From a virus, in UHGV virus genome UHGV-1366640: 64,000 nucleotides of DNA; one strand, 5' to 3'. Position numbers and translations under genes: made by a program. Under the pieces are notes generated by a model, which worked only from the letters and a program-made list of their open reading frames with translations, made no database searches and had not been told where the DNA came from. How positions within the stretch are numbered: the stretch's first letter is position 1; each line of letters starts with the position of its first letter. Below, piece after piece: positions 44,648 through 45,503 of the stretch.

Positions 44648-44703
44648 CGAAAAGTTAGCAAAACGGCGAAAAACGGCGTATTTATGCGATATATTTAGAA
44701 AAC

Positions 44704-44748
44704 AATAGCTGATTTACCTTAGATTAGGGTAGATCAGCTATTTTAAGG
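44704..44748 (+). terminator. rho-independent terminator (aatagctgat / atcagctatt stem followed by TTTTAAGGTTTT)
   Basis: Perfect 10-bp inverted repeat with a T-tract. Confidence 0.6.
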
Positions 44749-44759
44749 TTTTATCAAAC

Positions 44760-44788
44760 TTTACATTTGACTCTAAAAGTAGTATAAT
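44760..44788 (+). promoter_or_regulatory. sigma-A/sigma-70-type promoter TTTACA-N17-TATAAT
   Basis: Near-consensus -35 and -10 elements with 17-nt spacing, located 70 nt upstream of the sigma-factor gene. Confidence 0.55.
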
Positions 44789-44858
44789 AGTATTGTAAGT
44801 TAAGGGTACTCAAAACCCTTCAAAAATATTATTTTAGAGATCGAAAGGAATTTGAATT

Positions 44859-45503
44859 ATGAACATTTCATTTGAGAACATGGTAAATGTACTTGAGGAT
44901 GCAAGAAAATCAGACAAGCTGTTAGAAAACTATGAAATATCAAAGTATGATAACATCTTAAGAGGTGTTGCTAAGAAATACGGAAAAACATTTTGTTGTG
45001 ATGAAGATGAAATTTATTCTGAACTTTGTTTGAAGATCCTGAAGCTTGGTCGTGCCAATGGTTGGGAAAATCTTAATTCTAATTTGGTAGCGAAAATCGC
45101 TTATAATCGTGCAGTAGATATTTATCGTAAAAATCGAAGAGAGTGGGATAGAAATCATACAGTATCTTCTATAGATGAAGTTGATCCTAATTCAATTAAT
45201 TCTTCACTCTATTCCAAACTCGGTAATTCATCAGAAGCTGATATCTCAGTTCTGTGTTCACAAATACTTGAAAGATATCCTCGTGGTTCAAGAGAGGAAA
45301 TGTATCTTATAATCAAGCTTGTAGATAATGGAGTTCTCCCTGAGTCTGTTGCAGTTGCTCGAGGTATTCAAATGCCTGAAAAGGTTACAAATGAATCTAT
45401 AGCTCGATTGATGGGGTTCAAATCAAAAGCTCCTGCATCATTCTGTGGAATGATACATAACTTGAGAAATGAACTGTATGAAATGATGTACAAAGAAGTC
45501 TAA
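44859..45503 (+). CDS. phage-encoded sigma-70-family (ECF-like) sigma factor
   Basis: Region-2-like LVAKIAYNRAVDIYRKNRREW resembles the WLyrIArNxxiDxlR motif. A C-terminal HTH-like region is present. 214 aa. Confidence 0.55.
   Translation: MNISFENMVNVLEDARKSDKLLENYEISKYDNILRGVAKKYGKTFCCDEDEIYSELCLKILKLGRANGWENLNSNLVAKIAYNRAVDIYRKNRREWDRNHTVSSIDEVDPNSINSSLYSKLGNSSEADISVLCSQILERYPRGSREEMYLIIKLVDNGVLPESVAVARGIQMPEKVTNESIARLMGFKSKAPASFCGMIHNLRNELYEMMYKEV

Follow-up and report, generated by a model that had tools for sequence, protein, structure and literature searches.

The 64,000-nt stretch of the virus genome UHGV-1366640 analysed here (the window) encodes, at 44859..45503 on the + strand, a 214-amino-acid (aa) protein that we conclude to be a very diverged sigma factor, and it carries a family of bipartite motifs of fixed geometry that this protein may read as promoters. 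The gene, with a GAAAGGA ribosome-binding site before its start codon, lies downstream of the endolysin gene (43811-44647, +; Amidase_2), a terminator-like hairpin consisting of a 17-bp stem and a U-rich tail AUUUUAAGGUUUU (44705..44741, +) and a host sigmaA-type promoter, TTTACA-N17-TATAAT (44760..44788, +). The same sequence was present on two contigs of 98,224 and 98,178 bp with different start points, suggesting a complete phage genome of ~98.2 kb, and the genome-wide counts reported below cover 80,754 bp of it (the window plus fetched flanks L015 and L002, window-equivalent -7172 to 73,582). The portal protein shares 29-35% identity with its counterparts in Bacillus phage SP-15, Listeria phage LIS04, B. 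cereus phage HSE3 and Streptococcus phage GXN1. These relatives are typical of Firmicutes phages and strong Shine-Dalgarno sites precede the start codons, which fits a Firmicutes (Gram-positive) host for this metagenome-derived phage.

A preliminary description of the locus had placed a textbook promoter behind the endolysin terminator, and both elements held up. The hairpin region (44648-44758) has a minimum free energy of -31.7 kcal/mol (z = -5.16), with 0 of 200 shuffled sequences as stable. The promoter, which agrees with the consensus at 11 of 12 positions, begins 19 nt past the hairpin and ends 70 nt before the sigma start codon; it is the best sigma-70-type match of the region and the sole intergenic + strand match of ≥10/12 across the 80.75 kb. 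A hairpin in the leader that follows it was not significant against shuffled sequences (z = -0.39). In a variant phage with a sigma of 95% identity (L020 2754-2963 against window 44648-44858), the 211-bp intergenic region differs at only 2 positions, compared with 5 in the final 48 nt of the endolysin gene. Constraint may act on the leader and promoter region as a whole; the variant contig was too close for footprinting. Elsewhere in the window, a perfect TTGACA-N17-TATAAT (12/12; 33599-33627, + strand) lies within an open reading frame (ORF) at 33418-33756, and could be an internal promoter or a chance occurrence.

LIS04, HSE3, GXN1 and the metagenomic relative L016 all keep the arrangement endolysin, sigma, small gene, topoisomerase II, and one to three near-consensus host-type promoters precede the sigma gene in six lineages. 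Besides the phage studied here, these are L022 (TTGACA-17-TATAAT), L023 (TTGACA-17-TATAAT in three tandem copies that all have TG at -15/-14), LIS04 (two tandem TTGCTT-17-CATAAT upstream of LIS04_95), L021 (TGgTATAAT) and L016 (TATAAT), the contig ending before the -35 position in the last two. Their recurrence supports early synthesis of the sigma factor by host sigmaA polymerase.

Region 2 and region 4 signatures of sigma-70 had been attributed to the 214-aa protein in the preliminary description, an attribution that did not stand on the single sequence and gained its support from family-level and structural evidence. Several searches weigh against the assignment. The protein has no match to any Pfam family at E-values up to 10, and PDB sequence searches with the protein, its family profile and its C-terminal profile gave no significant sigma match; a full-length Foldseek comparison against the PDB ranked sigma factors top at non-significant values (best E 0.9), and alignment of the family with a single E. 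coli RpoE sequence by hhalign gave E 0.03 and a probability of 1.6%, with region 2 in register. PHROGs assigns the protein to a family that carries no annotation and matches it to a sigma family at E 0.14, and the NCBIfam SigX model matches residues 27-111 with E 1.3e-4, far under its cut-off. Whole-protein fold searches placed sigma factors top or among the top, again without significance, and included sigma2-only structures among the full-length matches.

An exhaustive search of 1.84 billion representatives recovered 42 relatives of the protein. A word-index homolog search yielded a single close relative, an IMG/VR scan with the single protein gave no match, and the alignment of 41 family sequences proved too diverse to locate loci with. 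At the level of this family, the sigma assignment is much clearer: TIGR02937 (sigma70-ECF, for extracytoplasmic function) is matched by 24 of 41 members (best E 2.9e-8), and members match 21 other families, nearly all of them sigma factors and mostly ECF (SigX, SigZ, FecI, SigJ), the exceptions being one hypothetical-protein model and the sigma-O regulator RsoA. Pfam Sigma70_r2 is matched by 17 of 41 members and was the only or best match in 8 of 10 checked individually, at 14-20 bits over nearly the whole model. The conserved alignment blocks I..GVARKY, DLEQELW and LVAR.C.NKAVD.YR..RRR align with regions 2.1-2.4 of RpoD, SigB, CnrH and RpoE. An AlphaFold model (predicted local distance difference test, pLDDT, of 84) shows helical domains at ~5-105 and 124-213 joined by a low-confidence disordered linker (106-123), that is, a sigma2-like domain (~25-105), the short flexible linker and a sigma4-like domain (124-214) with the helix-turn-helix expected of region 4, with neither region 1.1 nor region 3. 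Based on these family-level profile matches, the aligned region 2 blocks and the two-domain model, we conclude that the protein belongs to the sigma-70 family as a very diverged, ECF-like member with two domains, for which binding to core polymerase is predicted. The Prokaryotic Genome Annotation Pipeline labels the LIS04 and HSE3 orthologs 'sigma-70 family', and the HSE3 ortholog, Gp103, has been reported as a phage sigma factor without a Pfam domain and outside the ECF classification (Casas-Pastor et al., PMC7826278). The regulation typical of ECF factors was not observed in this phage, where the sigma gene lies behind a sigmaA-type promoter and not behind its own motif, and PHROG searches of 20 neighbouring small proteins revealed no regulator, anti-sigma factor, MotA or AsiA.

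The candidate target of this protein is a motif that recurs at operon fronts. With strict spacing, AGAGTT-N16-CGTTTATA has 8 matches at ≤2 mismatches against 0.51 expected, a number reached by 0 of 100 shuffled sequences, and CGTTTATA by itself has 6 occurrences (0.83 expected), every one on the + strand. A weight matrix trained on seven window sites and run over both strands of the 80.75 kb recovered four more sites in the flanks, outside the training set (-4230, 64049, 67895 and 68763), and the rebuilt model added a twelfth, GGAGTG-N16-CGTTTATA (L015 1198-1227, window-equivalent -5974). These 12 sites score 29.7-51.0 bits, with the next best position at ≤6.4 bits. All 12 are on the + (coding) strand, intergenic (intergenic DNA making up ~6% of the sequence) and spaced by exactly 16 nt, in agreement with the invariant spacing proposed earlier. 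A start codon follows 19-62 nt downstream in 10 of the 12; site 64049 is ~37 nt away from a called gene start and site -5974 ~190 nt away from the gene called next. Combined, the sites give the consensus AAATTT-(G/A)-AGAGTT-T-N15-(G/C)-CGTTTA(T/C)A-(T/C)TT(G/A)TGTAAG, with the short form RGAGTT-N16-CGTTTAYA, and the downstream continuation noticed previously is a real part of it (YTTRTGTAAG). An over-represented coding-strand motif that keeps its geometry and lies ahead of phage operons is what is expected of promoters for a phage sigma factor. An IMG/VR scan with the long motif gave no match.

Since YTTRTGTAAG runs downstream into what would be transcribed sequence, the element might be no promoter at all and act instead as an RNA-level leader signal, or as a DNA site for replication, packaging or recombination. 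We consider this highly improbable: two conserved blocks flank a fixed-length spacer of free sequence, the element occurs only on the coding strand and shortly before most start codons, it often follows a terminator hairpin, and no Rfam family matches it. Its upstream block also varies between lineages with the spacing kept, the hallmark of a protein that reads DNA from one face in -35/-10 geometry.

As promoters, the window sites would serve both structural and replication genes, as the preliminary description had stated. On the structural side, AGAGTT-N16-CGTTTATA at 8664..8693 (+; 41.2 bits) precedes the portal gene at 8721 (Portal_T4), and a second copy at 32533..32562 (+; 35.3 bits) precedes the baseplate/tail operon that starts at 32606, with Phage_base_V and GPW_gp25 downstream. 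On the replication side, GGAGTC-N16-CGTTTATA at 46040..46069 (+) precedes the intein-containing topoisomerase II large-subunit gene at 46129; this site had been called weaker, and with 40.7 bits it proved to be a normal full member. AGAGTA-N16-CGTTTATA-TTTGTGTAA at 50683..50712 (+; 43.9 bits) lies before the gene at 50745 and the topoisomerase IV-A-like gene at 51058, AGAGTT-N16-CGTTTATA-CTTGTGTAAG at 54862..54891 (+; 50.9 bits) before the gene at 54927 and the helicase gene at 55491, AGAGTT-N16-CATTTATA at 57008..57037 (+; 37.8 bits) before the DnaB-like helicase gene at 57079 and a primase gene, and AGAGTT-N16-CGTTTATA-TTTATGTAAG at 60087..60116 (+; 45.1 bits) before an SSB-like gene at 60179 (PHROG match) and probably recA at 61287. 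Six of the seven sites originally listed thus stand; the seventh, at 61235..61264 (+), has AGAGTT with TTTTATAA in place of the -10 block, is a non-member by score and would at best be a weak internal promoter before recA. A motif match at 1067 lies inside an ORF and was dismissed as chance.

The three sites on the virion side (-4230, 8664 and 32533) form a subclass with A, not G, before AGAGTT and a shared upstream extension, TAAACC(G)TTAAATTTA (window 8640-8663 and 32510-32532; L015 ~2918-2941), and may represent a late subclass that uses an additional factor. A second promoter class for structural genes was sought in TAGATAAT, which occurs upstream of two genes, and was rejected for lack of enrichment (7 found against 6.25 expected). 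Upstream of promoter sites, a near-identical terminator-like hairpin, AAGAAGTGAGTCAGGGTAGTATAAYTATACCCYTACTCACTTTCTTT, recurs at window 8161-8207 (z = -4.2), at 32411-32457 and at window-equivalent ~67,800 in L002, and seems to mark operon ends. Directly upstream of the -4230 site is a non-coding stretch of ~680 bp (L015 2250-2930, window-equivalent ~-4920..-4240) rich in AGATCT, GAAGAGA and inverted repeats, which may function as an origin, in packaging or as a control region.

We then derived promoters for each fetchable relative, giving nine lineages (this phage, L011, L016, L022, L023, LIS04, SP-15, HSE3 and GXN1). All nine carry the sigma factor and all nine have hexamer-N16-CG(T/G/C)nTAnA sites, with the hexamer at -22 to -17 when counted from the C of the -10 block and a 16-nt spacer in every case. 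Against RGAGTT and CGTTTAYA in the 12 sites described above, the closest variants are those of L011 (6 sites in 20.6 kb of a 142-kb IMG/VR contig; -35 RGAGY, -10 CGTTTAYA), L023 (one site on a 9.9-kb contig, overlapping the sigma stop codon; AGAGTA, CGTTTATA) and L022 (one site on a 962-bp contig; GGAGTT, CGCTTACA). L016, with a sigma 45% identical, has 5 sites in 10.7 kb with the -35 box GGCGAA(AT) and -10 CGTTTAYA. The complete 181.6-kb LIS04 genome has 52 + strand sites, nearly all intergenic, with -35 (A/G)GCTCT (box GCTC(T/G)ATT) and -10 CGTTTATA (32 sites) or CGTCTATA (20 sites). SP-15 has 13 sites in two 20-kb loci (GCTnnATT, CGTTTAYA) and HSE3 has 9 + strand sites in 40.5 kb (GGCTCT, CGTTTAYA), none of them in the tail-gene half. 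GXN1 had been picked as a sigma-less negative control; it turned out to carry the sigma factor (hidden Markov model E 1.3e-47), encoded directly upstream of a gyrB-like gene, together with its own motif variant, (A/G)(G/A)ACTT and CGGTTAYN, at 16 sites in 50 kb. No genome with the motif and without the sigma factor was found among the nine lineages.

The two boxes of the motif covary with the two domains of the protein. The start of the last sigma4 helix is P(A/G)S(W/F) in the lineages with RGAGT (this phage, L011, L023 and L022), GS(G/Q)SY in those with GCTC (LIS04, SP-15 and HSE3), SKSF in L016 with GGCGAA and TSSGY in GXN1 with RACTT. Every lineage with CGTTTATA has N(K/R)A(V/T)DxYR as its region 2.3/2.4 block; only in GXN1 is this block altered, to NTCIDLFD, and the -10 box changed, to CGGTTATA. 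These counts are of lineages and not of independent events, and the -10 case rests on GXN1. A conserved sigma2 domain combined with a diversifying sigma4 domain would produce the box covariation observed, and the co-occurrence and covariation of protein and motif across genomes are those expected of a phage sigma factor and its promoters.

LIS04, SP-15 and HSE3 each encode two paralogous sigma factors of this family. The second paralog lies behind a phage-type promoter in LIS04 and SP-15, and a phage-type site precedes a sigma gene in GXN1, HSE3 and LIS04, suggesting that cascades or autoregulation occur in these relatives. In LIS04, the 32 CGTTTATA sites are mostly in the replication region and the 20 CGTCTATA sites mostly among small genes, with the same -35 box; its paralogs LIS04_95 and LIS04_17 could each serve one -10 variant.

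Taken together, these data make it probable that host sigmaA makes the 214-aa sigma factor, which then directs host core polymerase to RGAGTT-N16-CGTTTAYA promoters; the scheme had been proposed in the preliminary description and gains support from the sigmaA-type promoters in six lineages and from the co-occurrence and covariation in nine. In this model, host sigmaA polymerase would start at TTTACA-N17-TATAAT (44760-44788) and make the 214-aa protein, which would bind host core polymerase, its sigma4 domain reading the -35 hexamer RGAGTT and its sigma2 domain the -10 block CGTTTAYA 16 nt downstream. Transcription is predicted to begin a few nucleotides beyond this, within the conserved YTTRTGTAAG stretch, and the at least 12 promoters would stand before nearly all replication and structural operons, among them the topoisomerase, helicase, primase, SSB/RecA, DNA polymerase and nucleotide-metabolism operons and those for portal/head and baseplate/tail. 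Core binding, the identity of the motif-reading protein, the start points and the timing are all deduced from sequence.

Other observations count against this model. The motif and promoter counts cover 80.75 kb of the ~98.2-kb genome. The structural modules of LIS04 and HSE3 lack the motif, while three sites precede structural operons here, and the temporal logic thus varies among relatives; this use may be a peculiarity of the smaller genome, or may involve the upstream element of the subclass or a second sigma factor of 249 aa, which could also be the real reader of the motif in this phage. In addition, the -10 block ends in TATAnT, made up of the final four bases of CGTTTATA and two that follow, and this resembles a sigmaA -10 hexamer.

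The last of these points raises the possibility of an arrangement like that of T4 middle promoters, in which sigmaA would read TATAnT and a phage activator, perhaps the 214-aa protein through its helix-turn-helix domain, would occupy the upstream hexamer, substituting for the usual -35 contact. In its favour, TATA(c/g/t)T supplies A2 and T6, both needed in a sigmaA -10 hexamer, T6 is conserved across lineages, and the upstream hexamer lies 20 bp from TATAnT, too far for a normal -35 element and reminiscent of an activator box. We nevertheless regard this arrangement as unlikely. ECF promoters of the SigW and SigX type combine a -35 hexamer, a spacer of 16-17 nt and a -10 element starting with CGT, and the CGT just upstream and the exact N16 match this geometry. 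The sigma2-like DLEQELW and NKAVDxYR blocks of the 214-aa family are typical of core binding and -10 recognition and would be needless in an activator, the -10 block changes to CGGTTATA only where region 2.3/2.4 changes, and no MotA- or AsiA-like protein is among the 20 neighbouring proteins searched. The bipartite geometry with a 16-nt spacer also has a precedent in Salmonella phage 7-11 (PMC8948821).

The second sigma gene lies ~6 kb upstream of the window (L015 404-1153, window-equivalent -6768..-6019), after a Hydrolase_2 gene and before a terminator and the GGAGTG-N16-CGTTTATA site. The 249-aa protein is an unambiguous SigB/F/G-type sigma factor by profile (Pfam Sigma70_r2 38.5 bits, cut-off 24; TIGR02937 64 bits, cut-off 42.9; SigBFG E 2.9e-16); its relatives are SigF-like sigmas of other Bacillus phages, and it is unrelated to the 214-aa family, with which hhalign gave no match. 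A clear sigma factor encoded in the same genome, with a motif site (L015 1198-1227) directly downstream of its gene, could itself read the motif, leaving the 214-aa protein with other promoters or another role. There is little probability in this assignment, in our judgement. A tblastn search at E below 1 found no homolog of the 249-aa protein in L010-L013 or in the complete LIS04 genome, which has 52 promoters, and the 249-aa sigma is thus not the general reader. Both boxes of the motif covary with the 214-aa family and not with the 249-aa protein, and consensus promoters of the SigF/G/B type look different from the motif. The 214-aa protein remains our preferred reader.

Among characterised systems, one of the closest is gp47 of phage 7-11, whose late promoters are GTAAtg-N16-aCTA with a start 6-9 bp from the conserved element (PMC8948821). 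Both are very diverged phage sigma factors that use, or here would use, host core polymerase at a bipartite promoter with a 16-nt spacer, at about ten sites before operons; phage 7-11 is, however, an unrelated phiEco32-like enterobacterial podovirus with another consensus and no detectable sequence similarity, and its promoter has been validated, whereas ours is proposed from sequence. The gp36 protein of phiEco32 is likewise an ECF-like phage sigma that redirects host polymerase to middle and late genes, with the cofactor gp79 (PMC8948821, PMC12276001), but its promoter is a single element, tAATGTAtA, and it lacks region 4 homology, whereas the protein described here has a sigma4 fold and a -35 hexamer to go with it. 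No gp79-like cofactor was identified in this phage. In SPO1, another Firmicutes phage, sigmaA makes a first sigma factor and bipartite phage promoters are then used by gp28 (middle) and gp33/gp34 (late) (PMC13401047), and the second paralog behind a promoter of this class in LIS04 and SP-15 suggests a comparable cascade. The sigma families and consensus differ, however, this phage having one sigma of the present family and one SigF/G-like sigma, and the same promoter type here stands before replication and structural operons alike.

Bacterial ECF (group 4) factors share the sigma2-linker-sigma4 layout and the size of ~200 aa, and provide the best family-model matches (SigX, SigZ, FecI and TIGR02937), but the query scores below the curated cut-offs, no anti-sigma factor is evident and the gene has a housekeeping-type promoter, not its own. 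At T4 late promoters, a sigma2-only protein (gp55), assisted by the sliding clamp, recognises just one element, the -10 TATAAATA. The present motif differs in having a -35 hexamer and another -10 block, and the protein in its sigma4-fold domain; the replication module of this phage, moreover, is PolA-type and not T4-type.

While the principle of a phage sigma factor is classical, this sigma family, its promoter rule and the combination, in phages of different genera, of a near-frozen -10 with a diversifying -35 are new; full-text literature searches found no description of the family and no published promoter consensus for these phages. A further, tentative proposal, which we hold to be possible and short of probable, is that, in phages infecting Bacillus, Listeria, Streptococcus and uncultured hosts, the family is modular, a near-frozen sigma2/-10 pair (CGTTTATA) being combined with a fast-evolving sigma4/-35 pair (RGAGTT; GCTCTATT for LIS04_95; GGCGAAAT for the L016 ortholog; RACTT), so that relatives would be insulated from one another, and with the -10 perhaps read only on DNA with hypermodified thymine. 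If so, one small sigma factor would discriminate self from host and self from relative, and the natural sigma-promoter pairs would be orthogonal, the covariation of sigma4 helix and -35 box offering a small natural panel for Gram-positive synthetic biology. The hexamer-N16-CGTTTATA rule also predicts operon starts in cultured phages, and hence a testable transcription map for poorly known large Firmicutes phages (Thornevirus SP-15 and LIS04, HSE3, GXN1 and metagenomic relatives), whose sigma genes are annotated, if at all, by weak similarity. T4-like virions, finally, need not go with T4-type late transcription.

The window has a GC content of 35%, with all its large ORFs on the + strand. Head and tail genes are T4-like (Portal_T4, Peptidase_S77, Gp23, gp13), and the replication module comprises split topoisomerase II genes, helicases, primase, the SSB-like gene, RecA and a PolA-type polymerase. 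Scanning the window for Rfam families and tRNAs gave no match, and a metagenome scan with a flanking protein returned only an unrelated 2.3-kb contig. Two gaps in the head module, at 14004-14366 (363 bp) and 12484-12668 (185 bp, before the major capsid gene), contain no ORF, no motif site and no Rfam match.

A gene with an HMUDK_hel domain (5-hydroxymethyl-dUMP DNA kinase helical domain) at 49638-50696 is followed further downstream, at L002 11020-15487, by thymidylate-synthase-like, deaminase/TAGT, amino-oxidase/GLF and DUF1599 genes. Together these suggest that thymine in the phage DNA is hypermodified, as in the relative SP-15, in which case the T-rich -10 block would be modified as well; SPO1 DNA also carries modified thymine, as is likely here. 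Between both topoisomerase genes lies a MazF/PemK-like toxin homolog (49268-49618; PHROG 1936, E 1.9e-18), and in L016 this position is taken by a PemK_toxin gene. The neighbouring topoisomerase II large-subunit (GyrB-like) gene (46129-49281; ORF of 1050 aa) carries an intein (PF14890, Intein_splicing), while its orthologs in L016 and LIS04 are ~630 aa long and intein-free.

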